This document shows, in pieces, positions 8,378 to 60,309 of a stretch of 64,000 bases of DNA (position 1 is its first letter; every line of letters starts with the position of its first letter). The notes beneath the pieces were generated by a model. It was not told the origin of the DNA. It did not search any database and saw nothing but the letters and a program-made list of their open reading frames with translations. Origin of the DNA: Patella caerulea (taxonomy: Eukaryota); assembly GCA_036850965.1 (NCBI GenBank), contig JAZGQO010000002.1:26996901-27060900 (forward strand). The letters run 5' to 3'. The translations under genes and the position numbers were made by a program.

Positions 8378-10314
8378 TTTTTATACGCCCACATTGAAAT
8401 GTGGTCGTATGTTGTCATCCCGTCCGTCGGTCTGACATCCACAAATGCTTGTGGACGCTCTAGAGTCCAAAGTTAATATCTGATTGACTTTAAATTTATA
8501 TGCAACGTTTAAGGTCACGACAAGAAGACGCTTATTGATTTTCAGTGATTTCTGATAATTACTGCCAGAGTTATGGCCCTTGAACACTTCAAAAAATCTT
8601 TTGGACACTCTAGAGACCAAAGTTAATATCAAATTGACTTTGAATTTATACACAGTGTTTAAGGTCATAAGACAAAGAAGCCTGTTGATTTTCAGCGATT
8701 TCCTATAATTACTGCTAGAGTTATGTTGCCAGAGTCGTATGTTGTTATCCCGTCCGTCGGTGTGACATCTAGGGCTTGGTATCGATAGTGATTTTTACTA
8801 TCGATGATCGGCAGTGAAATGTCGGTCGATAATCGATAATATCGAAAACAAACTTATTTTCACGGTCGTCATCAAGACCGGAAACAGTGTAAGTTCAAAG
8901 TTCAAAACCATACGAAGTTGCGAAAGATCGTTTGCTCCTGTCTAAAACCCAAAGTCGGCAAAGTGTTTCCACACAGCACTTTTAGCTTTACCGGGAAAAT
9001 CAACAAGCGTTTTGTCGTCCATGTGTGCTATTTATTGTACCGGGTACTCTATTACTGAGGCACACGTACAGAAATAGTGAACTGTAGCATGGACCTTATA
9101 ATGTGTTATAAGGTCCATGCTACAGTTCACTATTTCTATTATAACACATTATAAGGTCCATGACTGTAGTAGACGAATTCTGAAGCTTTCAAAGGGATAT
9201 AACTCTAACTTTATTTACACATCCGGGTATCTCCGATTTAGCGATAGTCAACAATAATTTCTTCAAAACTAAAGTAATGTTTCAGTGAGAGTGAATTTAT
9301 GAAAACGGCTGTTCAAAAAATATAAGCAGTCACAATTTTGTTATGTGTTACATTGATGCTTGATCATTGATAGTAATTAAAGTGAGCGGTGTATTATGAT
9401 TAACTGAAAGAAAACATTGACATTTCAGACGCAAGAAAAATAGACGAAGAGCGATAATCGATAGTAACCCAACGCTATCGATAGTGCTTATCTGGGCAGT
9501 CCAATCGATACTATCGATTTATATCGATATTTTACCCAGCCCTAGTGACATCCACAAATGCTCTAGAGGCCAAAGTTAATATCTGATTGACTTTAAATTT
9601 ATATACAGCATTTAAGGTCACTTAAAGAAGACACTTATTTATTTTCAGTGATTGCCGATAATTACTACCAGAATTATGGCCCTTGAACTCTTCAAAAAAT
9701 CTTTTGGACACTCTAGAGACCAAAGATAATATCAAATTGACTTTGAATTTATACACAGTGTTTAAGGTCATAAGGCAAAGAATCCTATTGATTTTCAGCG
9801 ATTTCCTATAATTAATGCCAGAGTTATGGGCCTTGATCACTTTGAATAATCTTGTGGATGGTCTAGAGGCCAAAGTTGAATTGATACACCATGTTTAAGG
9901 TCATAAAACAAAGAAGCCTATTGATTTTCTGATAATTACTGCCAAAAATATCTCCCTTGATGCTCTAGAGGCCAAAATTATCATCCGATTGACTTCAGAT
10001 TGATACACCGTGTTTAAGGTCTTGAGACGAACAAGTATATTGATTTTCAATGAATTTTGATAACTGAACAGCTAAATCCATGATATTAAATGTTCTCTAT
10101 ACTCAACGTTAGCATGGGGAAGAGCTTTATAAAAACCCATCAAATTCTATCGATTTTCTGATAATTACTTAATGAGTTGTTACTCTTAATCAGATTTAAG
10201 TGTATTATAAATGTTTCATTACCGAAAAGTAAAAATATGCGAAAACTCTTTGTTGACTGCCCGGACGATTTAGCTGTTGTGGATCTCTGTTTTGTTGCCT
10301 GGCAACCTATCTTT
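8378..10314 (+). mobile_element. Satellite-bearing non-autonomous element, copy A, interrupted by a nested MITE at 8759-9544
   Basis: The 5' end tttttatacgcccacattgaaatgtggtcgtat...gtccgtcgg is followed by tandem monomers of about 166 bp. A degenerate tail then ends ...gttgcctggcaacctatcttt. The same architecture appears at 17280, 59732 and, inverted, at 29838. Confidence 0.75.
8759..9544. mobile_element. hAT-like MITE nested in satellite array (TIR TAGGGCTKGGTA..., 8-bp TSD GTGACATC)
   Basis: The termini tagggcttggtatcgata... and ...tatcgatattttacccagcccta are inverted. GTGACATC is duplicated at 8751-8758 and 9545-9552. There is an internal perfect palindrome at 9075-9170. Confidence 0.6.
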
Positions 10315-10435
10315 ATTTCTGTGAAAGACTCGGAGGCAAATTTTGCCTTATCATAGATGCTTCCAACTATTCCTTGATTTCAAACAATCAAAAAGTTCTT
10401 TTAAGGCACGCCAATGTGAACACGGGTGGTATTCG

Positions 10436-10575
10436 TTTTTATACGCCCACATTGAAATGTGGTCGTATATTGTCGTCGTCGTCCCTGTCCGTCCGTACCT
10501 GCTTGTGGATGCTCAAAGGGCCAAACTTTAAATTTATACATAGTATTTAAGGTCATGAGACGGAGAAGCCTATTG
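10436..10575 (+). mobile_element. Orphan 5' end plus about one monomer of the satellite-bearing element (copy B)
   Basis: tttttatacgcccacattgaaatgtggtcgtatattgtcgtcgtcgtccctgtccgtccg followed by a single monomer-like unit. It abuts the foldback repeat. Confidence 0.6.
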
Positions 10576-10764
10576 GTCCACAACCATGATATACAATTTT
10601 TTAACAGTATTCGCATACAAACTGCGGGCATTTTGTATGGCAATTTTGGTTGATTTTCCCGAAATTCGAACTCAACCTTCCTTGGTGTAATGGTAATATA
10701 ATCAAATGTTTTTTTAAATCGGATAATAATTTTGACCTCCAGAGGGTCCACAAGCTAAAAAGTT

Positions 10765-12245
10765 AGGCTGGCACTGCCAGGCAGGATACGCCCACATTTT
10801 TGAGAGATGGATAAAGAAAAAGCAATACCGAAAGTGATTTTTCCTACATCATTAAGTCCTGTATTTCATACTGTATTGGGAGCAGCCATTTTGCTGGTCA
10901 GTTCCAGTCTGATATTCATGAAATTCGAAGCCGACAATGATTATGGTGTGAAGGTACACAACCTAGAAATGTGACTTTTCGTCAAAATCGGATAAGAATT
11001 GTGACCTGTAGAGAGTCCACAACCATGATATACCATATTTTTACACTATTCGCGTACAAACGGCAGCCATTTTGTATGGCAATTTTGGTACTATAATCAG
11101 AGGGTTTTTTTAAAATCAGATAATAATTGTTCGAGAGATAGACAGAGAACAAGCAATACCGAAAGTGATTTTTCCTACCATCAAAGGCCATAAAGTTACA
11201 ATATGATATGCGCAAATATCGAAAAGAATAAAGATCTTTAGGTTATAAACAAGCATTTCGGGTTTCATCAAAATCGAATTAAAATTGTGACCTTTACAGG
11301 GTCCACAACTTTGATATACCATATTTTCATACTGTTCGCCTACAAACGGCGGCCATTTTTTCTTGAAATTCATGGTTATAACTCAAAGATCTTGGTTCCT
11401 TTCGATATTTGCGCTTATCGGATCATAACTTCCTGAATTATGGCCCCTGATTATACGCAAAATCGCCTTATTTTAGCTTGTGGTCCCTCTGGTGGTCACA
11501 ATTATTATCCGATTTGAAAAAACGTTTGACTCTATCACCGTTACACCCTACGGAAGGTTGAGTTCGAATTTCGAGAAAATCGGACCATAATTGCCAGAAA
11601 AAATGGCCGCCGTTTGTACGCGAACAGTGTAAAAATATGGTATGTCAAAGTTGTGGACCCATTAGAGGTGACAATTTTAATTCGATTTTGATGAAACCTG
11701 AAATGCTTGTTTATAACCTAAAGATCTTTATTCTTTTCGATATTTGTGCATATCAAATTGTAACTTAATGAATTATGGCCTTTGATTGTAGGAAAAATCA
11801 CTTTCGGTATTGCTTGTTCTCTGTCTCTCTCTCGAACAATTATTATCTGATTTAAAAAAAAACTCTGATTATATTACTGTTGCACCATAAGGAAGGTTGA
11901 GTTCGAATTTCGTGAAAATCGTACCAAAATTGCCGGAAGAAATGGTCACCTTCTGTACGTGAATAGTGTAAAAATATGGTATATCATGGTTGTGGACTCT
12001 CTACAGGTCACAATTCTTATCCGATTTTGACGAAAAGTAACATTTCTAGGTTGTGTACTGTTACATCATAATCATTGTCGGCTTCGAATTTCATGAATAT
12101 CAGACTGGAACTGACCAACAAAATGGCTGCTCCCAATACAGTATGAAATACAGGACTTAATGATGTAGGAAAAATCACTTTTGGTATTGCTTGTTCTCTA
12201 TCCATCTCTCAAAAATGTGGGCGTATCCTGCCTGGCAGTGCCAGC
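10765..12245. mobile_element. Long foldback / inverted-repeat element of about 1.5 kb with roughly 290-bp internal subrepeats
   Basis: 10765-11400 is the reverse complement of about 11560-12245. The outer ends are aggctggcactgccaggcaggatacgcccacattttt and aaaaatgtgggcgtatcctgcctggcagtgccagcct. The mirrored six-frame ORFs are artefacts of this symmetry. Confidence 0.7.
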
Positions 12246-12339
12246 CTATCTTTCATACATGTATAATGAATTGGGGCCAATATCTATCTATTTCTGGCAT
12301 TATGGATTAGTATAATAAGAAAACAAGCCAACATAATTT

Positions 12340-12610
12340 AGAATTAAAGTTATTGTGTCCCAAAGCATCAACCAATCAAATTGCTTATCTCTGCTTACCC
12401 TACGGCAGAAAATGCTCATCTTCGAACTCCATCAAGGTATCGCCCTAATAAACACCTACACCAAGTTTGAACATTCTAGGTCAATTAGTCGGAGAGTTAT
12501 TGTGTCCCAAAGAGTGTGATGGACAGACGGAACGAAAAGACAGACGGGCGGACAAACGAACCTATTTTAATAGTCCCCCACTTTCTTCGAAATGCAGGGG
12601 ACAATAATGT
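12340..12610 (-). mobile_element. Partial copy of the TIR/tandem-repeat element seen in full at 39220-40140
   Basis: It shares ...gggacacaataactctcc...ttgaacattctag...ccccactttcttcgaaa with 39220-39420, in reverse orientation. Confidence 0.55.
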
Positions 12611-12675
12611 TGACACTATGGTTGAGTTTCTTAAATAAGACTAATATTAAGGTAAAATGTATTTTGTATCAACAG

Positions 12676-12761
12676 GAAGAATTAGATGCTGAATTTTCAG
12701 AAAAAGTGAAGAAGAACCAAACTGAAGCAGAGAAAAAAGCTGCTAAAAAACGTGCTAAAAG
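12676..12761 (+). CDS. PRKRIP1: PRKRIP1-like exon 4 (EELDAEFSEKVKKNQTEAEKKAAKKRAKR)
   Basis: caacag acceptor and gtaata donor. It matches the human [27 protein letters not shown] segment. Confidence 0.7.
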
Positions 12762-13305
12762 GTAATATGGTGTTGACTTTATTTAAATAACATGTCAATC
12801 AAACTTTTGACCATTTTCTTTTATTCAAATCAAGTGAAAAACATGCATTTGATCATAGTGCAATCCCTAAATTAATTCAAGCAGTCCACCAGATTTTTAA
12901 ATTCAATTCTGTCTCAATTTGGAAACAAAATTTTCAAGACAAAAACACTAAATTAAGATGTCCCTTAACTAAGTCAAAATAGGCCATTTTCCTTTTATGG
13001 CCCGCCATGACACATTGCGGTTACTTGGAATGTCAGCAGTATTTGCACCAGTTTTAGAAACATTTACACTCTAACATTTAGGAAATTTGACAAAGTCGAA
13101 ATTATCACCATTGTTTTGAGAAATGTGTAATTATTATCACACAATTACAATCTGAGGGTCAGAGACTTCAAATAACGTTATATTACTACACTGTCTGTGA
13201 ATTAAAACCTGTTTATGTCATCGAATTTCTATTTCTGCAAATCAACTGTAAAGAAATAGCCTGTTAGATGCTATGTTGTCTGAAATTTTAGCTTAAAATA
13301 TTAGT

Positions 13306-13665
13306 AATATAAGAGATAAAAGTGGTTTTAAAGACCAAGTTTTCCCGGGTGTTAGTGATTAGTTTCGTTTGTGTAGAATTCTTCAGACTGCTTGAACTCA
13401 CGGGGGTTTATATTTATACTATTCCGAAACCCCGGCGAGGTTTTAAATGGTTACTAATAGGCGGGGCTAGTGGGGTTAGTCCCTTGGCGGGTAACCCCAC
13501 CTATTAGTAACCATGGAAACCCCGGTCAGGTTTTTGGAATAGTATAAATATAAACACCCGCCACGTGGGTCCAATCAGTCTGAAGAGTTCTACACGAATG
13601 AAACTAGTCATTGACATCCCGATCTGGGATAACTTGGTCTTCAAAGCCACCTTTACCTCTTATAT
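13306..13665. mobile_element. Palindromic (hairpin) MITE of about 360 bp
   Basis: ataagagataaaagtggttttaaagaccaagtt... at the left is mirrored by ...aacttggtcttcaaagccacctttacctcttat at the right. There is a nested palindrome around 13440-13520. Confidence 0.6.
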
Positions 13666-14890
13666 TATCTCACATTCTGCTTACAATTTCGTTATGGCTA
13701 ATTTTGTTGATCAAACTGTTTGGTCATGATTCCCCTTTTTGCTTCAGAATCAGTCACTACTTTGACGGAAGATATCCTCTCGGTTGAATAGTCTTTATTC
13801 TTTCAGCTCATAGAGATATGTAGAATCTAACCGGTCCGAATCCGATCTGGTTGATAAGGAGAGTTCTTTCAAATTTGATATATAACCGAAGGTGAACAGG
13901 CCTACCCGTCCTGTTAATAAAACGGACATTCTCACCTCTGTCCACAATAAAGAGACATTTTCTAGTTCCCTCCTACTTCCGATTTCCATAGCATAGTCCA
14001 AACATTGACTCTCATACAAATAAACCATTTGGTACTGATTCGTACCTATATACTATTAAACCTCATCGGGTGCGATGTTGAATTGCACAATATTTAACAT
14101 TTTAAAACCTAAGTAATCTATGGAATCAACAACAAATCTAAACTTGGGCACTCCAACTATCTTTGTTTTATAATATTAGTAGTTAGAGATGATTGTTAAA
14201 ATTGCTTAACAGAGCAAGAAACGGTTATCAAGACATAAAGCCATAAAAAAGTTTTCATGAATAACATAATTATCACAGCTTCATATAGAAGAATAAATCC
14301 ATACATAATTGTGCTGAAAATATTGCTGGTTCCAATGACTGGAGATTTAGCGACCATTTCACAAAACAATAAAAGGTGGCTTTGCCAGTTTATTAACCTG
14401 GGTTGATCATCAAATCAGTATAATCTCATATCCCAATTCACGCCTCTGCTCAGATTGTTGCTAGTAGTCTTACTTAATCTTAATGGCTGTTGATGAATTG
14501 TTAATCTGTTTCAAACTAGAATCTTTTTAAGCTTGAATCTTTAAAAGGAATATACATGTAAGTCACAAATAGTTTCATTCTTTGTAGTATTTACAGATGA
14601 ATTGAAAATTTAGCATCTACAGTAGATAAGATATTGTCAATCTAGCACCGACTATGATTTCTGTTGCAGTCTTTTTATTGGCCTCTTTTAATTCAGTTGA
14701 ATATAAGCTGATAGATTATCTACTGTTGATATTTTGATTGTTCAATTAAATGTTAAATAAGCAATTTGAGTATATTTTCTGTAAAATTCAAATGGTTGGT
14801 TGTGCAAATGTAACAAATAGCTTGTTTAATATACATGTACTGGTAAACTTGCATTTTGTGTTAGTTGTAATATCACAAACATTATTCTAG

Positions 14891-14946: not shown

Positions 14947-14998
14947 GTAGATGTCATTTTGTTTTATAACTGAAATTTTTTTAACGGACAATATTGGG

Positions 14999-16112
14999 GC
15001 CAGTCATTATCACATATGTGATAGAAATGATTAAACACTTTCCAAATACAATATTAACACAGAGATCATCGCTACCATAGAGGAGTCATAAAGGATTCAT
15101 GAATCGGAAGTGACGAACGCCAAAGGAAAACACGAATTATCTCTCTATGTGAATGACTGAAGTGATGAGTGATGACAGATAAACGGCGGAATTTCTGCTC
15201 ACTAATAATCCCTTCGAAGACAAAAAGTTATATGGGACCGCAAGAGGTTATCTGACGATACAATAAAGTAATTAAGTGTCATAAGATACGAGAACACAGG
15301 AAAAATAGAAATACTCCGTACAGCCCCTTGTTTTTATTCATTCTATAGGGGAGACCGGGGCACATTGAACCACTTTGTTCACATACATTATGTTTGTCCT
15401 CATTTAATATCAAATGTTTTTATTAGATCTCTTTAGTTCATGATCAAAATTTTAAAAAAAAATCAATATGCCCCCTTATATGGAACGAACCCCGGTTTAT
15501 CTGGATTGTATAGATTAGACATATATGAACTTAAGTACAAGAATTTCCGAGGCTAAGATGGAAGATTTTTCTCTTTTAAGCGCTTTTTTGTAAAATTCAC
15601 CTGCCTAAGAAAATAATTGACAGCATGTGGCTTATTGATGGAGAAATGGGACTAAGAAGTTATCTCACTTCTGTACAGTGTTGGGTTGTATAGTATTATT
15701 TATAAAGGATTAGTTGGGTACAAGACCTAAAATCCGTGACCAATTTGCGGGGAAGTTATTTTGAAGGTGGTTTCTATATGACAAAAACCTGCTGAAGCGA
15801 TTAAGCTTGGGTGCCTCTCTCTAAAATGCTGGCGGAAGCCGCTAGAGGGCCAGATTCAAAATGGTGGTCAGATGTGGCGGGAAAATATAAAATTGTGTAA
15901 TATAGGCTTCTGATGTGTCTATTCGTATGTTTTAAGGGTCTCTGAATCGAAATATTTTAATCAAAAATCAATCCAGCCACTTGTTTTGCCAATATGGCCG
16001 AAAAATCCAACATAGCCATGGATTTTGATTTTGATTTAATCAACGCTTTATAATGGACCCATGTAATATATAATCACGCATGATAATCAACATCACCAAC
16101 TTACCCAGTTAG
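14999..16112 (+). repeat. Arm 1 of a roughly 1.1-kb inverted duplication
   Basis: Reverse-complement identity to 19248-20135, for example gccagtcattatcacatatgtgatag and taatggacccatgtaatatataatcacgcatg. Confidence 0.75.
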
Positions 16113-17279: not shown

Positions 17280-18881
17280 ATTTTTATACGCCCACATTGA
17301 AATGTGGTCGTACATGTATATTGTCGTCGCCCCCGTCCGTCCGTCTTGTGGACGCTCTACAGGCTAAAGTTAATATCCGATTGACATTAAATTTATACAC
17401 AGTGTTTAAGTTCATGAGACGAAGAAGCCTATTGTTTTTCAGCGATTTCCGATAATAACTACCAGAGTTATGGCCCTTGATCACTTCAAAAAATCTTGTG
17501 GACGCTCTAGAGGCCAAAGTTAATATCCGATTGGCTTTAGATTTATACACAGTGTTTAAGGTCATGAGACGAAGAAGCCTATTGATTTTCAGCGATTTCC
17601 GATAATTACTGCCAGAGTTATGGCCCTTGATCTCTTTAAAAAATCTTGTGGACGCTCTAAAGGTCAAAGTTAATATCCGATTGACTTTAAATTTATACAC
17701 AGTGTTTAAGGTCATAAGACGAAGAAGCCTATTGATTTTCAGCGATTTCCGATAATAACTACCAGAGTTATGGCCCTTGATCACTTCAAAAAATCTTGTG
17801 GACGCTCTAGAGGCCAAAGTTAATATCCGATTGACTTTAAATTTATACACAGTGGATGCTCTAGAGGTCAATTTTAAAGTTAATATCCGATTGACTTCAA
17901 ATTTACATAGTGTTTACAGTCATGAGACTAAGTCGTCTATCGATTTTCAGTGATTTTCAATAATTTATACACAGCGTTTAAGATCATAAGACAATGACGC
18001 CTATTGATTTTCGGCAATTTCCGATAATTGGTGCCAGAGTTATGGCCCTTGATCTGTTTAAAAAATCATGTGGACGCTCTGAAGGTCAAAGTTAATATCC
18101 GATTGACTTTAAATTTATACACAGTGTTTAAGGTCATAAGACGAAGAAGCCTATTGACTTTCAGCGATTTCCGATAGTTAGTGCCAGAGTTATGGCCCTT
18201 GATCACTTCAAAAAATCTTGTGGACGCTCTAGAGGCCAAAGTTAATGTCCGATTGACTTCAAATTTATACAGAGTGTTTAAGGTCATAAGACAAAGACGC
18301 CTTTTGATTTTCAGCGATTTCCGATAATTAGTGCCAGAGTTATGGCCCTTGATCACCTCAAAAAATCTTGTGGACGCTCTGTAGGCTAAAGTTAATATCC
18401 GATTGACTTTAGATTTATACACAGTGTTTAAGGCCATGAGACGAAGAAGCCTATTGATTTTCAGCGATTTCAAATAATTACTGCCAGAGTTATCTCCCTT
18501 GATAACTTCAAAAATTCTTGTGACGCTATAGAGGCCAAAGTTACCATCCGATTGACTTCAGATTGATACATAAAGTTTAAGGTGTTGAACGAACAAGTAT
18601 TTTGATTTTCAATGAATTTAGATAACTGAACAGCTAAATCCATGATATTAAATGTTTCATGTATATACTAATTGTTAGCGTGGGGTAAAACTTTATAAAA
18701 AGCAATCAAATTCTAATGATTTTTTGATAATTACATAATGAATTGTTATTCATAATCAGTTTTTAGTGTATTACAAATGTTTCATTACCGAAAAAAGTAA
18801 AAATATGCGACAACCCTTGTTGACTGCCAGGACGATTTAGCTGCTGTGGGCGTATGTTTCGTTGCCTGGCAACCTATCTTT
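17280..18881 (+). mobile_element. Satellite-bearing non-autonomous element, copy C, full length with about 8-9 monomers of roughly 166 bp
   Basis: 5' end tttttatacgcccacattgaaatgtggtcgtacatgtatattgtcgtcgcccccgtccgtccg, then the monomer array, then a 3' tail ending ggacgatttagctgctgtgggcgtatgtttcgttgcctggcaacctatcttt. Confidence 0.8.
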
Positions 18882-21633: not shown

Positions 21634-23649
21634 TGGTGTTAAACTCTGAAACGTGTATATAGTGTACAAATTGTGATTTCTAATTAAAACTGAACAGTAT
21701 TTGAATTTTAAAAGTTCAAAGTTATTTGCACAATTTAATATCAATCGATCGACTTTAGAGAACAAAACTATCACCTAAATTCAATTTGAACATCATTTTA
21801 TTCTTCAACTCGATCTATGAATAGTTATATGATCATTGATTAACTTTTCCATTACTATTATATGTATGTGAGTTAGTTATACTTCATAATCTTTGGATGT
21901 TATTCTGCGTACTGTATATGAAACTTGATGTATATGATTTCAATGGTACATGTACATGTGTATATAAATTTACAGAAAAATTTGTGAGACAGGCCCTGGA
22001 CAAAGCCCAACTTAGGCATGGACCTGAGGTGCCCAGAGTCCTGCGGTTTTGGTATCCCTGCGGTTCATGGCTAAAAGAGAAAAAATTCAAATTCCAGATG
22101 AAAGTTTCACGTTAATCGATCTGTGATGCGAGGGCAGAGACTGAGCTATATTACAACCTTATATGTCAAGTTCCACTTGGTGATCGCTCTAGGCATCTAG
22201 CCGTGTGCTGGGCAGAGACTGCATCAGTCTGCAATCCTCAACCTTCTCTGTAATTGGTCAAAATCCATTCAAAAGGATATGAAATAATCTTTTCGTCGTG
22301 TTAGAGTTCCCACGATTCTAGTCAGGCCCATGGCCCTGCTAGGGTTATACTGCACTTTGGCCCTAGACTGTGGTTCTGTTTAATATTACTATAAATTATT
22401 GCATTGTCTGTATAAGTTGGTGTAGCAAACCAACATTCTGTAGCAATAATTGTATCCTGATCTCAGATATTTCACCGAGAAATTATATTAGTAAAGCAAT
22501 TATATTATAGTGTTTTCATTTTGCTAATCAATTGGAATGATTAGAGAACAAAAGATCAACTTATCTTAACATCTGGGTTTATAAGAGCTAAATCTATATT
22601 CTTAGGCACCTAGTAATGGACACAAATGGGTTGTAATGCATATAATAATGTACAGGTAATATGAATGTATATTAACTGATGTATTTTTACTGTAATTTCT
22701 AATCAGTTATGTTTGGCAAAATACGCGAAGTGTCCAAATTGAATGGCAGTTTTTGGTGTCTAATTATTTCAGTCTACACAGGTAGCATTCTCTTGTTCAT
22801 TGTGTGGCTTCGTTACAAATGGAAGTGGCATTTCTGCACACAATTTTCATTTTTTCTCAAATATTTGATATTAGAAGCCCAACGTTTCACAGTAAGATAA
22901 CAACATCAATGTTGATTTAAATTGACTTTCTTCATGTGTAGTTTAGTGGTCGAATGTGAGACATTAAGATAGATATTGATATTGCATTAGTGTGATAGCA
23001 CGAGGCAGTGTCTTGCTCAGTTGATTAAACAACTTAAAATACAGACACTATCCAGCATATGCATTTCATTGAAATACATTATGCAAGTCCAATATTGCAA
23101 CAATTATAAATAATGTACACTTGGCACATTGCCTGTACCTTTATTTAAAATAATGGTACGCCAACATGAAAGGATGACATGACATCTGTATTTTAAATGG
23201 GAATAAAATAAAGCAGAGTAATTCATTATGATGATTGTTGTGGTGTGTTTGGCAATAGCGAGTTGATGCGCAAAGGACTAAAAAAAAGAGGTATGATGCC
23301 AGAGCTAAATTTGCCTTGGGCCAAGGTGTTTCTGGTTTCAATGTTGTATAAGTTATTTTTTAGACATATTCCCACGATCAATCTATGAGTAAATTGCTTG
23401 ACAGTACACCATCCAATATTGAGAAGATCAGATAATACCAGCCATATCTGTGGTAAAGGTGAGACTGCTCACAAAGACTGACAATTAAGGTACTGGATAG
23501 CAAATGTATAATATATTATCAATGGTGAGCAAATGTATAATATATTATCAATGGTGAACAGAGTTCCCATCTGACATGACTATTACTTGTCAGAACTTCA
23601 AACATGCATAACTTTGCTCAGAATAGAGTCATTTTACTGAAATTTCCGA

Positions 23650-23845
23650 GCGTATGTGGCATGGAGAGAGGGACGCCTTCTCAACCTTGTGGGTTTCCTC
23701 CGGGCACTCTGGTTTCCTCCCACTGCTAAAGACCCCTACACGCAAGCGAATTATTGAAATAAAATTAAAAACCATATGTTAGTCCCGAAATGACCTAGTT
23801 TGTGTTGAGTGGCCGTTAAACCCCATTTCTCTCTCTATCTCTCTG
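23650..23845 (+). mobile_element. 5'-truncated SINE family 1 copy
   Basis: It lacks the tRNA-like head but retains the core (ggtttcctcccactgctaaagacccctacacgcaagcgaattattgaaataaaattaaa) and the ...gttaaaccccatttctctctct tail. Confidence 0.65.
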
Positions 23846-27188: not shown

Positions 27189-27334
27189 ATGTCTGTTCCT
27201 CAGAGACGACAGGGTGGAGAGGATTCTCTATATAGAATCCCACCCTACTATTATATACATGTATTAGATCAGAATACAAATGTTACCAGGTTAACTATTG
27301 GACCACAGACTTATATCAGACAAGACAATGAAAG
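27189..27334 (+). CDS. MVP: MVP exon 1 ([49 protein letters not shown])
   Basis: Near-identical to the vertebrate MVP N-terminus [35 protein letters not shown]. gt donor at 27335. Confidence 0.9.
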
Positions 27335-27684
27335 GTTTGCGAATTTTTTTTCAAACAACCAATTAAACATTCTACTTCAGTATGAAAGTTAAACATAATT
27401 TTATAGATGTATCCTCCATTTACTTAAATCTCTTTGACCTAAATAATGTATTCGTTAGAATAATGTAGTCACTCACTAGTATACACATTCAAAACTTATG
27501 ATTATCGAAGGTATGACATTTCTAATAAACAGGAAAAATAAAATTATAGCTGGAATACAAGCTGTTTAGTGAAAGTTAATGTTTCCAAAAGATGAACAAA
27601 TTTATAGATAATAGTTTGTGATACAAATTTCAATATTATTTTTGCCATTTTATTCTGAGATAATTTTAATTGTCTTATTTATAG

Positions 27685-27880
27685 AATTGTATATGGACCT
27701 GAGAAAATGTTGGTGGTACCACCCAGACATTATTGTGTAATAGAGAACCCTGTTGTTAGAAATGTTGATAATGAAGTAGTCACAGATAAAGCTGGACAAA
27801 TCAAACTCTATCATGCTGATCAAGAAATACGTCTAGCTCAAGAACCCTTTCCATTATACCCTGGTGAAGTCTTAAAACAG
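27685..27880 (+). CDS. MVP: MVP exon 2 (IVYGPEKMLVVPPRHYCVIENPVVRN...PFPLYPGEVLKQ)
   Basis: Matches human MVTVPPRHYCTVANPV...DPFPLYPGEVLEKD. atag acceptor and gtaaat donor. Confidence 0.9.
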
Positions 27881-29221: not shown

Positions 29222-29261
29222 GTATTTAAACAGTTTTTAACTTGATATGACGTGGATAAGG

Positions 29262-40140: not shown

Positions 40141-40420
40141 CAGCCTCACTGTTGGCTTGTTTTATTTTTTTTTAATACATTACATTAAAACTCTAATCTT
40201 CACATGTTATAGTGTAATATCAAATATTTAAATGTAGAAACAAGCCAATGTTCCACCCCAGGGAATGTTCAGTGATCTGTTAAATTATTTTAAAATTTGT
40301 ATGATTTGATTGCCTCATTCGTTCTTGTGGATCCATTCACTATTCCCAGTACTTCATAACCAGGGGCATGGAAGACGAGATAAATTATATATGAATTAGA
40401 CAGTCAAATTGTAAGATTAC

Positions 40421-42411: not shown

Positions 42412-42500
42412 CTGAAAATATAAAGCATACAGGTAATGTTTATCTAAATTTTTTTCAAATATAATCATTAGAATAATGAAATAATCCAATTACTTACATC

Positions 42501-44020
42501 TATACTATTCAAAAAAAGTAGGGGATATTTGATTTTTAAGTGTTATTAAAGTCACCTAATGAAACTGACGAAGAAACAAATGACAAAATGAAATGAAGTT
42601 CACATTCATCGATTTATTCCAAATGATCATTAGACTAAGTAAGGCACAGACTGACCATTATAAGGGTAAAATGATACCCGGGGTCAAACAGCAAAGTTAC
42701 CACAGCATCACAACAAAGTCAGTAACGGGTAAATCCTCCTCTGTTTGCCAAACAAGCATTGATCCGACGTGGCATACTCCTAATGAGGTGTCTAAGGTCA
42801 TTTTGGTCCAGATTGTCCCATTCCTGTTGCAACGCAGCAGCAAGTTCTTGGACATTGGCAGGACGTTGTTGACATTGACGTAGCCTCTGTCCAAGCATGA
42901 CCCAGACATGCTCGATGGGGGAGAGGTCGGCACTCAGTGCTGGCCAAGGTAATGTGGTGATGTTCTGTTGTTGGAGGTAACCTGTAACGATCCTGGCCCT
43001 GTGACATCTTGCGTTGTCATCCTGGAAGATGAAACGGCGGCCATGACGTTGTGCGAACGGCACAACATGGACTGCCAAGATGTTGTCCGGGTAGTACTGG
43101 CCTCTAACACGCCCTGCAACAACATGTAAAACAGTGATGCCTCCCCACACCATAACAGAACCACCTCCAAATCGATCATGTCTGATGACGTTAACGTCTT
43201 GGAAGCGCTTGTTTCGACGACGCCACACCCACCTACGTCTGTCCAAAAAATCAACAGTGAACCATGACTCATCTGAAAACATCACATTGCTCCAGCGTCG
43301 ATTATCCCAGTGTTGACGATCCCTACACCAACGACGTCTTGCCTGAATGTGATAATCTCTCAAACAAGGGATCACGCGAGGACGTCAGGCACGAAGGTGA
43401 CCCCTATGCAGTCGATTCCGAATCGTCTGGCCACTCACTCTCACACCAGTGTCTGTTTGAAGACGAGCGCTGATCTGATTTGCTGTGATTACACGATTTC
43501 TCAAGGCGAAGGTACGGATAAATCGATCCTGGGCTTGAGTTGTCGCCCTTGGTCGACCTGAGCGTGGTCTGTTCTGTACAGATTGTGTATCACGGTATCT
43601 GGACCATAGCCTGCTTATGACAGACTGAGAAACATTTATCGTCCGCGCCACAACCGCCTGTGTTGTGCCGATCTGTAGCATGCCAAGGGCACGTAACCTT
43701 TCATTTTGGGTAAGCCGAAGCATATGAAAATTTGTTTTCTGGTCACTAAAACAATTAAACTGATGTTTCCACCCCGGAATTCAATGCCACAATGACTGTA
43801 ACATTCAAAGTCAGAGTCGTGCAAATCTTGGGTTGGTCCCCCATGATGATCCCAAGCATCACGTACATTCCATGCGGTAGCTATTGGTGCGTTTGGGCGT
43901 CACATGTAACTGGAAATGTTTCTTCTGTTAGGTTCTATAGTGACTTTTTTCGTAGTCATTTGCATATTTTAGTATTATGCCCCCAAAATCAAATATCCCC
44001 TACTTTTTTTGAATAGTATA
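42501..44020 (-). mobile_element. Tc1/mariner-family DNA transposon, copy 1, with roughly 35-bp TIRs and TA duplication; occupies almost the whole KPNA-like intron 42412-44049
   Basis: TIRs tatactattcaaaaaaagtaggggatatttgatttt at 42501 and its reverse complement ending 44020. Internal Tc1 transposase pieces: HTH/paired-like ORF 43385-43723 and DDE ORF 42719-43375 (DD..E with the QQDNARCH, LPWPA and SPDLSPIEHVW motifs). The two are separated by a frameshift. Confidence 0.9.
42719..43723 (-). pseudogene. Frameshifted Tc1-type transposase (copy 1)
   Basis: The N-terminal DNA-binding part (MLRLTQNERLRALGMLQIGTTQAVVARTINVSQSVISRLWSRYRDTQSVQNRPRSGRPRATT...) and the DDE catalytic part (..FSDESWF.., ..FQDDNARCHRARIVTGYLQQQNITTLPWPALSADLSPIEHVW..) sit in different frames. 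Confidence 0.85.
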
Positions 44021-44126: not shown

Positions 44127-44600
44127 CTGAAATATACATTTCAATACATTTATATTTGGATAAGATATATATCTACAATAAACATATGTTCACATTGTTA
44201 CAATTCAATGCAGCAGTAAATAGGGAACCACCTGGAGGATCTGTGTTCGATACCTTTGTTATCCAATATAGTTTATCAGGATTTCCTGGTGTGGTTTCCT
44301 CCTGTCAGTGGTGCAGGACCGAGTAATGTAATGACATCTGGTACTGATGTAATTGAATGTCTCAATCATGGAAACTCATTTAATAATCAAAGTGACTGTG
44401 AAGTGATTTTCATTTCAATATTTGTTTAAAATCCATTATGTAAGATTTAGATAAAGAGCTGTCAGTACTTATATAATAAACAATTCCAAATTTCATTACA
44501 ATTGCTTTATTTTGAGAGAGGTATCAATGTTTGAAGTTTTGACATAGATTGTTTATTATCGTATCAACATTACGTCTGCACCATTCAATAGTCTAGAGAG

Positions 44601-44883
44601 AGAGAGAAATTGGGTTTAACGTCCACTCAACACAAAATAGGTCATTTCGGGACTAACATATGGTTTAATTTTATTTCAATAATTCGCTGGCGCGTATGGT
44701 TCTTTAGCAGTGGGAGGAAACCGAAGTGCCCGGAGGAAACCCACGAGGTTGAGAAGGCGCCCCTATCTCCATGCCATATACGCTCACACCAGGGCTCGAA
44801 ACCACAGCCGCAAGCCAGAGGTGACCGGCCAGCTAGAGGTCGAAGCGCGGCACTCTAGACCTCTAGGCCATCCCCCCCCCCCC
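44601..44883 (-). mobile_element. SINE family 1 copy with perfect 15-bp target-site duplication CAATAGTCTAGAGAG
   Basis: TSD at 44586-44600 and 44884-44898. The body is the reverse complement of head, core and tail, ending in a (C)13 run and a (GA)n tail. Confidence 0.8.
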
Positions 44884-45007
44884 CAATAGTCTAGAGAGTT
44901 TTTCATGTGAATAAATGTTGAGATAATTTATATAACATTCGAAGCCAAAATAAAACCCGGCAATAGGTAGATTTACATCTTACATAATGCATCTTTAATA
45001 AACATGT

Positions 45008-46492: not shown

Positions 46493-46760
46493 AGGTTGAA
46501 TGGTCTAGTGATTTAACTTCTGCTGGTGAAACCAGAAGGTCTGTCATTGAGTCACCCAACATGTTTCGACTTCCTGCTTGAAGGTGACAAAGGAGTAGGG
46601 TCGCCTGTCCAACCTCATGGGTTTTGTCCCATTTCCTCCCACTGCTAAAGATCCATATACGCAAGTTAATTATTGAAAAAAAAAATTGAACCATATGTTA
46701 GTCTCAAAATGATCGAGATTGTGTCAAGTGGGAGTTAAACCCTATTTCTCTCTCTCTTTA
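46493..46760 (+). mobile_element. SINE family 1 copy (diverged)
   Basis: Head ggttgaatggtctagtgatttaac..., core ggtcgcctgtccaacctcatgggttttgtcccatttcctcccactgctaaagatcc and tail gagttaaaccctatttctctctc. Confidence 0.65.
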
Positions 46761-47193
46761 TTTGTCAAATCAAACAATAGCTACATGTAGTTAGCCACTC
46801 CAATTTGACTTTTTGTTCTTTAGGGACATATGTAAAAACATTTCCTTCCTTATTTTTTCCAAATTATTTTAGTTATGAAATTTTAAACAAAACATCTTTC
46901 ACAAGATTTAAGTAGCTATTTATTTATCAAGACACCTTATTTGAATATGAAGTTTACGAGAAGGATTAAATTTCACTATAATTTAGAAATATTTATGCTC
47001 CAGTCCTTGCAATATTCCAGAAAAAATGTGTTACGTTCTTGACAAATATTATGATCGTTGTCAACTAATTTCAAAGTTAAAGTATTTAGTTTACTTTTAT
47101 TTAAGATAAGGCATGGTATGTTTTTATAAATCAATAACAGTATTGCGACTTTAAATTGTTTGACTAATAAAGAAAACAATGGCTGTTATATAC

Positions 47194-48305: not shown

Positions 48306-48605
48306 TTTTAGAGGGGGTTGGGTGGGATGGCCTAGTGGTTGAGAGTGCCGCGCTTCGACCTCTAGCTGGCCGGTCACCTCTGGCTTGCGGCTGTGGTTTC
48401 AAGCCCTGGTGTGGTGAGCGTATGTGCCATGGAGAAAGGGGCGCCTTCTAAACCTCATGGGTTTCCTCCGGGCACTCTGGTTTCCTCCCACTGCTAAAGA
48501 CCCCTACGCGCAAGCGAATTATTGAAATAAAATTAAACCATATGTTAGTCCCAAAATGACCTAGTTTGTGTTGAGTGGACGTTAAACCCCATTTCTCTTT
48601 TTTTT
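48306..48605 (+). mobile_element. Full-length tRNA-derived SINE (family 1 reference copy)
   Basis: tRNA-like head ggatggcctagtggttgagagtgccgcgcttcgacctctagctggccggtcacctctggcttgcggctgtggtttcaagccctggtgtgg, core ...gggtttcctccgggcactctggtttcctcccactgctaaagacccctacgcgcaagcgaattattgaaataaaattaaaccatatgttagtcccaaaatgacctagtttgtgttgagtggacgttaaaccccatttctc and a T-rich tail. Confidence 0.75.
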
Positions 48606-48649
48606 ATGTATTTTAGACACAAATTGTTTAATAACATATGTTAAATTAC

Positions 48650-48892: not shown

Positions 48893-49050
48893 CAGGAAGA
48901 AATCCATGAGGTTGAGAAGACGCCCCTATCTCCAAGCTACATACATGTAGCTCACACCAGGAATCAAAACCACAGCCGCAAGTCAGAGGTGACTGACTAG
49001 CTTGAGGTCGAAACTAGGAAATTCTATCTAGACTACTAGGCCGTCCCAAC
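48893..49050 (-). mobile_element. SINE family 1 fragment (head and core, reversed)
   Basis: catgaggttgagaagacgcccctatctcc...caccaggaatcaaaaccacagccgcaagtcagaggtgac...ctagactactaggccgtccc is the reverse complement of the SINE head region. Confidence 0.6.
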
Positions 49051-49462
49051 ACCTCTCAGAGGAAAAGAGGACGACTGTTTTTTTTAAGAACTTTTGATAT
49101 AAAAACAAAATATTTTTCTACAATACATTGCACAATAAATCTGGTATCAATACTTAGCCCCATGTACATGTAAGAGACAATTACTCTTTTAAAATAATAT
49201 TAAACACATTTGGCCTTCATGGGCCTTTTGATACGGGCTATTTTATAGAGACCAATAATTGCATACAATTATTTTATTTTTCACAAGTAACATGAATAAA
49301 CTGAGGAAGATCTTTAGGTTAGGGTTAATCATTAGTTACTTTAAGTATTTGTTTCGGCTCTGCTCTCAACTATGTTACTGCCAGCTCCTAATGACAACTA
49401 AAATGAAAATAAGACTTTTCCCCCAACTCCGTTCAAAGACTATTTTGGAATCTTTTACCATC

Positions 49463-50964
49463 TATACTATTCAAAAAAAGTAGGGGATATTTGATTTTTA
49501 AGTGTTATTAAAGTCACCTAATGAAACTGACGAAGAAACAAATGACAAAATGAAATGAAGTTCACATTCATCGATTTATTCCAAATGATCGTTAGACTAA
49601 GTAAGGCACAGACTGACCATTATAAGGGTAAAATGATACCCGGGGTCAAACAGCAAAGTTACCACAGCATCACAACAAAGTCAGTAACGGGTAAATCCTC
49701 CTCTGTTTGCCAAACAAGCATTGATCCGACGTGGCATACTCCTAATGAGACGTCTAAGGTCATTTTGGTCCAGATTGTTCGATTTCTGTTGCAACGTCTG
49801 TTGTTGACGTTGACGTAACCTCTGTCCAAGAATGTCCCAGACATGCTCGATGGGGGAGAGGTCGGGACTCAGTGCTGGCCAAGGTAATGTGGTGATGTTC
49901 TGTTGTTGGAGGTAACCTGTAACGATCCTGGCATTGTGACATCTTGCGTTGTCATCCTGGAAGATGAAACGGCGGCCATGACGTCGTGCGAACGGCACAA
50001 CATGGACTGACAAGATGTTGTCCCGGTAGTACTGGCCTGTAACACGCCCTGCACCAACATGTAAAGCCGTTCTTCCAGCAACAGTGATGCCTTCCCACAC
50101 CATAACAGAACCACCCCCAAATCGATCATGTCTAATGACGTTAACGTCTTGGAAGCGCTAGTTTCGACGACGCCACACCCTCCTACGTCTGTCCAAAAAA
50201 TCAACAGTGAACCTTGACTCATCTGAAAACATCACATTGCTCCAGCGTCGATTATCCCAGTGTTGACGATCCCTACACCAACGACGTCTTGCCTGAATGT
50301 GATGATCTCTCAAACAAAGGATCACGCGAGGACGTCGGGCGCGAAGGTGACTCCTATGCAGTCGATTCCGAATCGTCTGGCCACTCACTCTCACACCAGT
50401 GTCTGTTTGAAGACAAGCGCTGATCTGATTTGCTGTGATGACACGATTTCTCAAGGCCAAGGTACGGATAAATCGATCCTGGGCTTGAGTTGTCGCCCTT
50501 GGTCGACCTGAGCGTGGGCTGTCCTGTACAGATTGTGTATCACGGTATCTGGACCATAGCCTGCTTATGACAGACTGAGAAACATTCATCGTCCGCGCCA
50601 CAACCGCCTGTGTTGTGCCGATCTGTAGCATGCCAGGGGCACGTAACTCTTCATTTTGGGTAAGTCGACGCATATCAAAATTTGTTTTCTGGTCACTAAA
50701 ACAATTAAACTGATGTTTCCACACCGGAATTCAATGCCACAATAACTGTTAAGTCAGAGTCGTGCAAATCTTGGGTTGGACCCCCATGATGATCCCAAGC
50801 ATCAGCTGCATTCCATGCAGTAGCTATTGGTGCGTTTGGGCGTCACATGTAACTGGAAATGTTTCTTCTGTTAGGTTCTATAGTGACTTTTTTCGTAGTC
50901 ATTTGCATATTTTAGTATTATGCCCCCAAAATCAAATATCCCCTACTTTTTTTGAATAGTATAT
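49463..50964 (-). mobile_element. Tc1/mariner-family DNA transposon, copy 2, nested inside another repeat
   Basis: Same TIRs as copy 1 and about 93-95% identity. The transposase is disrupted by a TAG nonsense codon at 50155-50157 (TTG in copy 1), an indel of about 30 bp near 49800 and a 15-bp indel near 50075. The TA flanks split sequence (49330-49462 and 50965-51240) that aligns to one repeat family. Confidence 0.9.
49681..50724 (-). pseudogene. Tc1-type transposase pseudogene (copy 2)
   Basis: ORF 50158-50724 runs HTH and linker through ...FSDESRFTVDFLDRRRRVWRRRN and then hits a stop. ORF 49681-50103 carries the DDE C-terminal motifs. Confidence 0.85.
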
Positions 50965-51789: not shown

Positions 51790-52150
51790 GTAAATCATAT
51801 TTATGTTATATATTATGAATAAATGTCTATGTAAATTATGTATCAAATAAAAGTCTAAGTAAATTATGTATCAAATAAATGTCTATGTAAATTATGTATT
51901 AAATAGATGTCTGTGTAAATTATGTATTAAATAATTAAATAGTGTAATAGTGTAATAAATAAATGTCTCTTTTTTGGCCATTTGATCGCCAAATGTTTTG
52001 ACAATTACAATTAAAAACTTTTGACCGTTATGACTAAAACCTTTTGACCTTTAGTTTATGACTAAAACTTTTTGACCATTGGTGTTATGAATAAAATATT
52101 TTGGCTGTTACCATACGATTAAAACTTTTTGACTAAAACTTTTTTTTCCG
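51790..52150. repeat. Two AT-rich minisatellites (roughly 31 bp x 5, tgtctatgtaaattatgtatcaaataaa; roughly 28 bp x 4, actaaaactttttgacc...)
   Basis: Direct tandem repetition is visible in the sequence immediately 3' of the SINE fragment. Confidence 0.6.
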
Positions 52151-57300: not shown

Positions 57301-58948
57301 GTGTTAAATACCTGAAATAGATCAAGAGATAACAGAAACATAGTTCAGAGTAAAATCGAAAAATTGTAAATTGGTGACCTTTGACCTCTTCTTAAGTGAC
57401 CTTTCCACCAAAAATTCCATTCTTAAGTTATATTTCCTGGTTCAGGGCACAATCCTCTATCAAATGCCACTGAAGTGGAACCGCACCTTCCATGTTGAAT
57501 AAACCGATTTTTGGGGGTACTATGGGTGGCTCCTCCTACCACACACACCACTGGTGCAACTTAAGAATTGGGTTTCTGGGGTCTCCTAACCCAGCCATAC
57601 ACTACTAGCACTCCAAACCTTCCGCATCTTTCATGTTTCATAAATCCTACCTAGCTCCCGGACTAACACAACACACACTGAGGCAGAGGGTGATTCTTTT
57701 CCCAAAGTAATTGCACTGTTTTCAATCTGAGAGAGAGGGGCTTAAAATCGACTCAAAAATTTTTAAATGACTTATAACGTAATATATATATTTATATTCT
57801 AAGTCTCATCCAAAATCTTCGACAATGAAAATACAAATTATTTGTCAATTTAATTCAATATGGATGTTGTGATCTTACCGCAAAAAAAGATGGACTTATC
57901 CAATATTAAAGACAAAATAAAAAAAAATTATCAGTGGTACACGAATCGTGTACCATAATTCGTTTCAGGCCCATTTTTAACAAGGGACTGGGAGAACGAG
58001 GCTAGATGGTGGTGCATGAAGAGCATACGCAATAATATAGAGGCTAGATAACCAGACCCTAGTGATTGCATGCTATTGAGACTTCAGGCGTATTTCGTCG
58101 AACATAAGTTATTTGAAATTAGATGGAAATGGATGAATGTAAATCAGTTTATATACATTCATATAAGATTATATTATGCGTTGCGACCCATTTGAGTAAA
58201 TTTCTAGATTAGCGATTTAGCTCCTTTAAATTAAGGAATCATTATGATTATTTCGGGAATAATATGTAATTAAATTATATTTTATTAATTTCCTTGATCG
58301 TATCCTACCTAGGTCTTACTTGTGGGAGGAAACCAGAGGACCCAGAAAAATTTCTTGAGATGCAGTTAGGTGACCTTTCAGAAGTGATGTGAATTGACTC
58401 ATTGACAGACCTTGTGTTCTAAAGTGCCTGCATTAGAATATCTGACTAGCCTAGAAATATTGACAATATCTGTAAACCGGACACTTATATAATTATATGG
58501 ATACAGTACAATTCTAGATTGATGATAAGCCCACAGTTATAATTTATATAGACTTACAGAAGTAATAATATGAAAGTAATGTCAATATATTTGTCTAGAT
58601 TATTTTGATGAAAATGTATAAATATACTCTAGTTGTTTGAAACAAGTGCAACAAATTTAAATTAGTCAACCACGGATGTGGGGGTACAGTTAAGTGATTC
58701 ACTTGGAAATTTATGTAACCTAATATGCCCTTTTAATGTACTTTACCTGAAAACTTTATGGATAACATTCACTAGATTAATTAACTGCAACGTTTCAATG
58801 AGGACAGAGATCAGGCCCAAAACGCAGTATAGCAGCTCTTTATAATATACTTAGTATAAAACAATGCATCTAGGATGTTGGATAGAACCATCTATAACAT
58901 TTAGGCTACAGATTAAACTGCTATATTATCCAAATCTTTATTTTTTAG

Positions 58949-59014
58949 TCAAGAAAAAAAGGGTTGAGTGCAGAAGAAAAGAGGACAAAGATGATGGAAT
59001 TCTTCTATGAAAAA
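58949..59014 (+). CDS. MND1: MND1 exon (SRKKGLSAEEKRTKMMEFFYEK)
   Basis: Matches human MND1 MSKKKGLSAEEKRTRMMEIFSE. It begins directly at a ttttttag acceptor, so the ATG must lie in an unlocated upstream exon. gtaagc donor. Confidence 0.75.
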
Positions 59015-59731
59015 GTAAGCTAACTGTTTTGAACTTACAGCTAATTGTAACTCTTTAATGCAAAAAGTAGTGCCAAACATGATTTGAAAGATATAACTAG
59101 GTTTAATGGAGATTTTATGTTTCTTGAATAATACAAAACAAGAGATCTTTTATATGCTAGTATGAAATTGTGCATATAGATTCACTTTCCATTGAACATA
59201 AATGTTTTTACAAATCTAGCACCCATATATGAAACACAAACCCACAAAGCCACAAGGCAGTTGGCATTATGTGTATCTATTGAAATCAATGAAAATCTAT
59301 TGAAATCAATACCAAAATCAGAAAAGTTTACTTTTGTTGTGGATACATGATTTGAAAAAATCATCGACTTATATATTTAGAATATAACGATCATATGTTT
59401 TGTTTTTATTGTCCCAATATTACCCTATTAATATTACTTGGTTGAAATCCGTCAGATATCAAAATAACCCAGTTTGCCTTTTTATGGTGGCCCCACCCCA
59501 CCATGTGGTGCCAAATGATTTTGAACTAATCGAATAGTAAGTGCAGGGGGATTGCACTACACAAGCAAAAGTGAAAAGACAATGCTGCTGACAAGACACA
59601 AACTATAGCCTACAGACATTGTAACAAATAAACAACAAATTTCAAATCAAGTGAATTAATCTGAGAGTCGCTGCGTTATACAGTCCCATGCCTGTATTGA
59701 TACATGCTGTACTTAAAAAAAGAAAGTGTCA

Positions 59732-60309
59732 TTTTTATACGCCCACATTGAAATGTGGTCGTATATTGTCGCCGCCCCCATCCATCCGGCGTCCACAATT
59801 GCTTGTGGACGCTCTAGAGACTAAAGTTTATATCCGATTGACTTTAAATTTATACACAGTGTTTAAGGTCATGCGACGAAGAAGCCTATGGTTTTTCAGC
59901 GATTTCCGATAATAACTACCACAGTTATGGCCCTTGATCACTTCAAAAAATCTTGTAGACGCTCTAGAGGCCAAAGTTAATATGCGATTGACTTCAGATT
60001 GACACACAGAGTTTAAGATGTTGAAACAAACAAATATTTTGATTTTCAATGAATTTTGATTACTGAACAGGTAAATCCATCATATTAAATGGTTCTTTCA
60101 GTAATTGTTAGTGTGGGGCAAAACTTTATAAAAAGCAAACAAATTATTATGATTTTCTGATAATTACATAATGAGTTGTTACTCTTAATCAGATTTTAAT
60201 GTATTATAAATGTTTCATTACCGAAAAAAAGTAAAAATATGCGACAACTCTTGTTGACTGCCTGGACATTTTAGCTGCGTTCGTTTCGTTGACTGGCAAC
60301 TTATCTTTA
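59732..60309 (+). mobile_element. Satellite-bearing element, copy E (5' end, about 1.5 monomers, 3' tail) in an MND1 intron
   Basis: atttttatacgcccacattgaaatgtggtcgtatattgtcgccgcccccatccatccg... then monomers, then a tail ...gttgactgcctggacattttagctgcgttcgtttcgttgactggcaacttatcttt. Confidence 0.75.

Follow-up and report, generated by a model that had tools for sequence, protein, structure and literature searches.

The nonautonomous Helentrons described as HINE or DINE-1 elements are defined by 12- to 15-bp subterminal inverted repeats, a complementary repeat at the 5' end, a microsatellite, optional central repeats, and a 3' stem-loop, and they insert in T-rich sequence without duplicating the target (PMC4067079). 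The Cg_HINE elements of oysters have subterminal repeats of 11 to 12 bp with a complement 1 to 12 bp away, GTCY, GTCC, or GTCK microsatellites, and arrays of approximately 3.6 monomers of 138 to 181 bp; their copies are often intronic, and the GTCY-type motif class of microsatellite was reported for six Cg_HINE families (PMC7492417). Here, we describe repeats in a 64-kb stretch of contig JAZGQO010000002.1 (positions 26,996,901 to 27,060,900) of the limpet Patella caerulea, the whole of which is called the window. Five loci in the window most probably are copies of one nonautonomous Helentron family (HINE, DINE-1-like), to which we give a probability of approximately 0.8 and which we call family A; two further families, B and C, are found in the same window. 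The limpet families were compared with pearl, DTC84, and Cg_HINE by their described layout.

With regard to Cg_HINE (PMC7492417; Helitron-N*_CGi in Repbase), the limpet families have the same order of modules, a GTCY/GTCC-type microsatellite, a short array of repeats in the same orientation, and a right flank in which the 3' repeat is followed by a palindrome. They also have T-rich ends, no target duplication, intronic copies, and families with common flanks but different repeats in common with the oyster elements. In contrast, the limpet host is a gastropod, the family A microsatellite is very short (2 to 3 units), and the conserved tail has 298 bp, versus a reported right flank of approximately 60 bp. 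Six motifs of 9 to 14 nt and six of 12 nt from family A were absent from the supplements of two oyster papers, on HINEs and on the satellitome, which is a weak test; motif searches that took in paper texts as well gave a single hit, which had no bearing on the family. DTC84 of Donax trunculus and pearl of Crassostrea virginica (Gaffney et al. 2003, cited in PMC4067079) consist of a flank, a microsatellite, a few repeats of approximately 150 to 160 bp, and a second flank, as do the elements described here (PMC3879986; PMC4067079). Their repeats carry a palindrome near the junction, and the limpet counterpart is CTCTAGAG, which lies 12 nt into the family A monomer. Both were first described as transposons of the miniature inverted-repeat kind (MITEs) with an AA duplication and were later reassigned to Helentrons, and both have bivalve hosts (PMC3879986; PMC4067079). 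An earlier note on this DNA, made from the sequence alone, had likened the five loci to the pearl and HINE elements of bivalves; the layout is indeed the same, but the host is a gastropod. DINE-1 (INE-1) of Drosophila and HINE-Mo of Metaseiulus occidentalis are also noncoding and have repeats of 12 to 15 bp, a microsatellite, and a 3' stem-loop, as here (PMC4067079), and DINE-1 has the 5' complementary repeat in common with the limpet family (Thomas et al. 2014, PMC4067079). Autonomous Helentron partners with common ends have been identified for DINE-1 and HINE-Mo, whereas the limpet family is known from nonautonomous copies alone, and the 3' repeat of HINE-Mo lies 38 to 60 bp from the end, compared with approximately 25 bp in the limpet family (PMC4067079).

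Copies and ends of family A

The family A loci and their parts were located by blastn searches of the window with three pieces taken from the copy at 17280-18881. All five loci claimed in the earlier note were found again, at about the positions that it gave.

8377-10314 (+): copy A1, one element with a 5' end, a duplicated block of left flank plus two monomers, approximately 3.4 more monomers, and a 3' tail
8770-9544 (strand not assigned): foreign 775-bp insertion nested in A1, outside family A
10436-10575 (+): copy A2, with a 5' end, a (CYGT)n microsatellite, and a partial first monomer
17280-17343 (+): left flank of copy A3, the best copy
17344-18625 (+): array of A3, ten in-phase blocks equal to approximately 8.5 monomers of 150 bp
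18626-18881 (+): right flank of A3, the remainder of the 298-bp conserved tail
29267-29838 (-): copy A4, with a 5' end, a microsatellite, and 3.3 monomers, without a 3' tail
59731-60308 (+): copy A5, with a 5' end, a microsatellite, 1.65 monomers, and a 3' tail

The 5' end was matched at 8377, 10436, 17280, 29838 (minus strand), and 59731, and in-phase monomers were present at all five loci. The 298-bp tail was matched at 10022-10314, 18584-18881, and 60020-60308, with identities of 85 to 87%. A single shared architecture, as proposed in the earlier note, describes the 5' end and the monomers of every locus but the tail of only three. In the alignments of the 5' junctions and of the tails, the DNA flanking the copies was unrelated between them, both upstream and downstream.

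The alignment of the junctions revealed approximately 31 invariant nucleotides at the 5' end of all five window copies (TTTTTATACGCCCACAT[T/G]GAAATGTGGTC). As noted before, the element starts in a T run, which had 5 nt in five of the aligned copies and 6 nt in one. The starts have T5 and the ends TTT, the bases immediately outside are not T-rich, and these T's may belong either to the element or to the target. Four of six copies had TC(A/G) ahead of the T5 run, a fifth had it with an indel, and TC is therefore a possible true 5' terminus. In A3, TCA lies just before the T5 run (17281-17285), and the 5' subterminal repeat TATACGCCCACA (17285-17296) is followed by the imperfect complement TGTGGTCGTA (17303-17312), a spacer, and a (CCGT)3 microsatellite (17333-17344) that closes the left flank and reaches 1 nt into the array. 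The complement, TGTGGTCGTAT, was found 6 nt downstream of the 5' repeat in all six family A copies, within the 1 to 22 bp expected of a HINE, with the same G-to-T mismatch in each. Paired with the subterminal repeat, it forms a 5' hairpin with a fold of -6.9 kcal/mol (z = -3.0 versus shuffled sequence). The CCACATT-GA-AATGTGG hairpin, which had been described as perfect throughout, was so in four of the five window copies and had one mismatch in the copy at 29838; its stem reaches ATACG.CCCACATT/AATGTGG.CGTAT. On its inner side, the left flank closes with a microsatellite, (CCGT)2-3, which is degenerate; the microsatellite of DTC84 and pearl is reportedly (ACGG)n, the reverse complement of (CCGT)n.

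At the other end, the alignment of the three tails gave a common end, ...GTTGCCTGGCAACCTATCTTT, with unrelated sequence beyond. In the right flank of A3, TGTGGGCGTAT (18845-18855) is followed by the palindrome GTTGCC-T-GGCAAC (18861-18873) and the terminus CTATCTTT (18874-18881). The palindrome had no mismatch in the copies that end at 10314 and 18881 and one mismatch in the copy that ends at 60308, so that the earlier description of a tail of approximately 300 bp with this hairpin stands for three loci, with an imperfect palindrome in one of them. The distance of the palindrome from the end is 8 nt in A1 and A3 and also in L002, a contig outside the window that is described below. The 3' subterminal repeat was degraded in A1 (TGTGGATCTCT), which kept its palindrome intact, and deleted in A5. 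In A3, the 11-nt 5' repeat ATACGCCCACA (17286-17296) is the exact reverse complement of TGTGGGCGTAT, which stands five bases ahead of the palindrome and approximately 26 nt from the 3' end. The absence of terminal inverted repeats, which the earlier note had used as an argument for rolling-circle movement, was thus a misreading of these ends. L002 and both family C ends likewise keep the exact ATACGCCCACA/TGTGGGCGTAT pair, and families A and B are alike in that their 3' repeat is perfect but the complement close to the 5' repeat is not. These subterminal inverted repeats argue for assignment to the Helentrons rather than to the canonical Helitrons.

Short inverted repeats near both ends would also be expected of a cut-and-paste MITE that contains tandem repeats and depends on a DDE transposase for its movement. 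The T runs at the starts and ends can be read as a TT duplication, as in the putative AA duplication of DTC84 (PMC3879986), and the window contains recent Tc1/mariner DDE transposons. However, the inverted repeats are asymmetric, with the 5' one lying 5 to 8 nt and the 3' one approximately 26 nt from the end, with a palindrome after the latter; the termini (T5-TATACG... and ...CTATCTTT) do not form an inverted pair; and no flanking target-site duplication of at least 3 nt was present at any of six element copies. Elements of the same class were moved from the MITEs to the Helentrons once autonomous partners had been found (PMC4067079), and we consider a MITE highly unlikely here. The appearance of a cut-and-paste insertion in the same DNA is provided, as an internal contrast, by the insertion nested in A1 (8770-9544), in which terminal inverted repeats (TAGGGCT[T/G]GGTA) are combined with a perfect target duplication of 8 bp (GTGACATC), as in hAT-type MITEs. 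An internal palindrome was seen in this insertion at approximately 9080-9160. A1 itself has an internal tandem duplication of approximately 325 bp (8405-8727 and then from 8728), comprising part of the left flank and two monomers with approximately 92% identity.

The 150-bp array and copies outside the window

Tandem Repeats Finder detected 150-bp arrays at 8443-8725, 9561-9875, 17344-18583, and 29267-29765. The monomer consensus has 150 bp and 38% GC, and the in-phase blastn matches gave the same length, which replaces the previous estimate of approximately 166 bp. The number of monomers does vary between copies, as had been proposed, with values of 0.3, 1.65, 3.3, approximately 5.3, and approximately 8.5 rather than 1 to approximately 9. 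In every copy, the monomers had the same phase after the microsatellite and the same orientation. The A3 array shows irregular internal junctions at 17854/17855 and at approximately 17963, and it ends in a degenerate last monomer, which is common to A1, A3, A5, and L002. A2 stops inside its first monomer, with an abrupt junction to inverted family C sequence. Only the first approximately 40 nt of the 298-bp tail belong to the degenerate last monomer, leaving approximately 256 bp of right flank beyond it. A derivation of this right flank from degenerate monomers was considered and rejected, as the local alignment score equaled the mean of shuffled sequences.

The nearest relative of a monomer was often its positional counterpart in another copy (A3_m9 and L002_m3, 96%; A3_m1 and L002_m1, 97%). 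The order of the array is inherited between copies, and the array is carried along with the element. Fixed positions of monomer variants are a hallmark of DTC84 in Donax (PMC3879986), and the limpet elements resemble it in the fixed variant positions of their first, penultimate, and last monomers. At 29267-29765, the three monomers were mutual nearest relatives, which suggests a local amplification or a separate subfamily.

The minus-strand frame of the array is open, as 150 bp corresponds to 50 codons per monomer, with open reading frames (ORFs) of up to 195 amino acids. Such ORFs were seen at 17284-17871 (-) and 18066-18473 (-), and public metagenome assemblies list array ORFs as proteins (P0001 and P0002). 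Coding by the array was rejected: no Pfam family scored above the cutoff, and 15% of shuffled monomers were likewise open. Since this frame is open, it could be used as a protein query; copies outside the window were found in this way, and the matching contigs of the European Nucleotide Archive, L001 and L002, were then compared with family A.

In L001, a new flank is followed by TTTTTTATACGCCCACTTTGAAATGTGGTCGTAT..., the microsatellite, and four monomers. A non-long-terminal-repeat (non-LTR) retroelement with endonuclease, reverse transcriptase, and RNase H (L001 2282-6160) is inserted after the fourth monomer. L002 contains monomers and a complete tail, in which TGTGGGCGTAT and the palindrome are intact and which ends in the terminus CTATCTTT, and then a new flank; it matches 18083-18881 with 95.25% identity over 800 bp, and the similarity stops exactly at 18881. 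Thus, the ends are found together with the monomer at independent loci beyond the window as well, so that, in a small sample, the family came through the refuting condition that the earlier note had set. Altogether, base-precise shared ends with unrelated flanks were observed at seven loci, the five in the window and the two in L001 and L002. Exact-pattern scans of viral contigs, prokaryotic genome contigs, and JGI metagenome contigs with the 5' end or the monomer core gave no match.

The same seven loci bear on a reading in which family A is a dispersed satellite that is not mobile and owes the spread of its arrays and flanks to segmental duplication or recombination. Local rearrangements are frequent in the window, as in the duplication of approximately 325 bp in A1 and the inverted duplication of family C. 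However, the base-precise ends occur with unrelated flanks, in different genes, and in independent assemblies, whereas a segmental duplication would carry the flanks along. This explanation is therefore barely credible.

Proposed Helentron-dependent mobilization of family A

The order of modules in each element is a short T run, an 11- to 12-nt 5' subterminal repeat, its complement 6 nt on, a spacer, a (CCGT/GTCY)n microsatellite, an array of 150-bp monomers in the same orientation, a right flank of approximately 256 bp, the 3' inverted repeat, a palindrome with a 6-bp stem, and CTATCTTT. A canonical Helitron has a 5' TC, a 3' CTRR, and a hairpin approximately 11 nt from the 3' end, and it inserts between A and T; family A does not qualify, as it ends in CTATCTTT rather than CTRR and its flanks differ from A|T. 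In contrast, the following features of HINEs are found: a pair of subterminal inverted repeats, a 5' complement, a microsatellite, repeats of fixed orientation, a 3' palindrome, no target-site duplication, and no coding capacity. The proposal of the earlier note, a rolling-circle element of the Helitron/Helentron type that resembles pearl and HINEs, thus holds as a satellite-carrying nonautonomous element with HINE features, without its argument from missing inverted repeats. Judging from this anatomy, mobilization would be by a rolling circle, with an enzyme and a target preference of the Helentron type. A Helentron Rep/helicase-endonuclease encoded elsewhere in the genome would recognize the repeat and hairpin at the left end as the start, and the repeat and palindrome at the right end as the stop. 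The element would then be copied as single-stranded DNA into new sites, with no duplication of the target. The array would be carried as cargo, and its length would change through slippage or unequal exchange.

Several results weigh against a Helentron-dependent element. No autonomous Helentron (Rep, PIF1 helicase, and AP endonuclease) is present in the window: none of ten window ORFs scanned against Pfam had a Helitron-like domain, and the other window ORFs of at least 70 amino acids, inspected by eye only, were mostly MVP exons, Tc1 transposase, array frames, and short anonymous frames. Only one of the three window tails of family A has an intact 3' subterminal repeat, and the fold energy of the 3' palindrome, which is too short, was not significant by itself (z = -0.6). 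The searches outside the window produced only two extra copies of family A, and insertion at TT and true mobility are putative. Finally, A2 and A4, in which the 5' end is intact and the 3' end absent, also fit a retroposon on the opposite strand that was truncated at its 5' end.

Such a retroposon would be similar to a short interspersed element (SINE), ending in TATAAAAA and mobilized by a long interspersed element (LINE), and the tail-less copies would be 5'-truncated insertions. The minus strand of the element does end in an A5 run, which is the end that A2 and A4 keep while they lose the other, as 5' truncation predicts; the window and L001 both contain LINE reverse transcriptases, and DINE-1 was formerly misclassified in the same manner (PMC4067079). 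However, the A/T run is fixed in length (T5, and T6 only once), flanking target duplications are absent, and there is no signal of a transfer RNA (tRNA)-like or other RNA polymerase III-type RNA; tRNA and Rfam scans of the window returned no match. Retroposition also leaves unexplained the subterminal inverted repeats, the hairpin, and the 3' palindrome, all of which are diagnostic of HINEs. We regard a SINE-like origin as very improbable and retain the assignment of family A to the Helentrons. A fragment of a non-LTR reverse transcriptase (RVT_1) was seen at the left edge of the window (182-1147, minus strand).

Families B and C, gene context, and other repeats

Two additional families were found in the window.

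39215-40163 (+): full copy of family B
12320-12607 (-): 288-bp deletion derivative of family B, with both termini kept
10576-12253: family C block, duplicated in inverted orientation about an axis near 11367

The full copy of family B begins with a T run, followed by the 5' repeat GTCCCCCGCC (39220-39229), the imperfect complement GTTGGGGGAC (39241-39250), and a (GTCY)9 microsatellite (39266-39301). The fold of its 5' hairpin was -12.1 kcal/mol (z = -3.6 versus shuffled sequence). The array (39311-40030) consists of monomers of approximately 147 bp organized in a 294-bp higher-order repeat; the 3' repeat GGCGGGGGAC (40129-40138) lies 24 nt from the end, and the terminus is TGTTGGCTTGTTTT (40150-40163). 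GTCCCCCGCC and GGCGGGGGAC form an exact inverted pair. Family B has the same layout as family A, with an unrelated sequence. The deletion derivative retains the 5' repeat and hairpin, a degenerate (GTCY)n, approximately one monomer, and, of the 3' end, no more than the final 14 nt (TGTTGGCTTGTTTT).

Family C has a left arm at 10759-11370 (-) and a right arm at 11364-12253 (+), each with repeats of approximately 335 bp and a 218-bp tail, and a further minus-strand fragment is found at 10576-10758. The two tails are 95% identical to each other. The right-arm tail ends in TGTGGGCGTAT-CCTGCCTGGCAG..CTATCTTT and the left-arm tail in ..CTAACTTT; in both arms, TGTGGGCGTAT is followed by CCTGCC-T-GGCAG, and the right arm has the terminus of family A, the left arm a version of it with one mismatch. 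Apart from the subterminal repeat and the terminus, the significant match between the unit of approximately 335 bp and the family A monomer covers 37 nt only. The 3' palindrome keeps its position, and families A and C differ in it by a paired change from GTTGCC/GGCAAC to CTGCC/GGCAG. The family C block adjoins the truncated family A 5' end at 10436-10575, and the two may be one composite element. Families A, B, and C together make up approximately 7.8 kb, or approximately 12% of the window.

Gastropod satellite DNA has been called largely neglected (PMC11121367), and we found no literature describing Helentron or HINE elements in a gastropod or limpet. Family A may already be catalogued in Repbase or Dfam. 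With somewhat less than even confidence, we suggest that the limpet elements are the first satellite-carrying HINE families to be characterized in a gastropod, with at least three families (A, B, and C) that have the bivalve-type module order and a GTCY-type microsatellite. If so, the Helentron cassette for nucleosome-length repeats would predate the split of bivalves and gastropods or would have moved between molluscan classes, and it would represent a general molluscan route for seeding satellite DNA that could be traced across five sequenced Patella genomes. Helentron-derived carriers of scattered satellite-like repeats are well documented in oysters and clams, and the same system would now be seen in a limpet; this extends a known mechanism to another molluscan class and leaves the view of how such elements work unchanged. 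The families also provide a concrete consensus for masking and classifying repeats in Patella genomes, where these repeats, left unmasked, yield spurious ORFs, two of which already are in public protein collections.

Copies sit in introns of housekeeping genes (PRKRIP1-like, MVP, and MND1), which were placed by tblastn with human protein sequences. PRKRIP1-like exons were found at 5492-7309, MVP exons at 27219-36811, and MND1 exons at 58949-63429; a further likely PRKRIP1-like exon near 12660-12770 was read by eye, without tblastn support. The spliced MVP product was identical over its full length (100%) to KAK6190922.1 of Patella caerulea, and the next match was that of Lottia gigantea (90%), whereas a query with one MVP exon had a best hit of 81% identity and left the host unassigned. 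Four of the five family A loci lie within introns of these three genes, including A4 in an MVP intron (between an exon ending at 29223 and the next beginning at 30611) and A5 in intron 1 of MND1 (between exons 58949-59011 and 60417-60581). The earlier note had placed all copies in introns of the three genes, but A3 lies between the last recognizable PRKRIP1 exon and the first MVP exon and is either between genes or in an unrecognized intron. An inverted-repeat pair (14992-16109 versus 20142-19254) with arms that are 75 to 95% identical encloses A3, which may lie inside another, larger element.

PcH-sat, described from the same host, is another tandem repeat with a link to a mobile element (Petraccioli et al. 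2024, PMC11121367), and we found no other P. caerulea satellites in the literature. Its 179-bp monomers are derived from Nin-SINE, and it is pericentromeric and makes up approximately 10% of the genome (PMC11121367), in contrast to the 150-bp monomers described here, which are carried in HINEs and dispersed in introns. The window contains seven copies of a short interspersed repeat of approximately 180 to 290 bp with 72 to 94% identity (3629-3809, 6461-6694, 23648-23843, 44594-44884, 46541-46761, 48314-48607, and 48895-49048), which might be related to the Nin-SINE source of PcH-sat and have no tRNA or Rfam signal. Two Tc1/mariner-type copies (42497-44020 and 49459-50963) are 93.6% identical over 1.5 kb and have DDE_3 transposase frames. 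Two self-complementary, foldback-like stretches and a 28-bp minisatellite, all unrelated to the HINEs, account for 2548-2699, 13305-13667, and 51818-52103.

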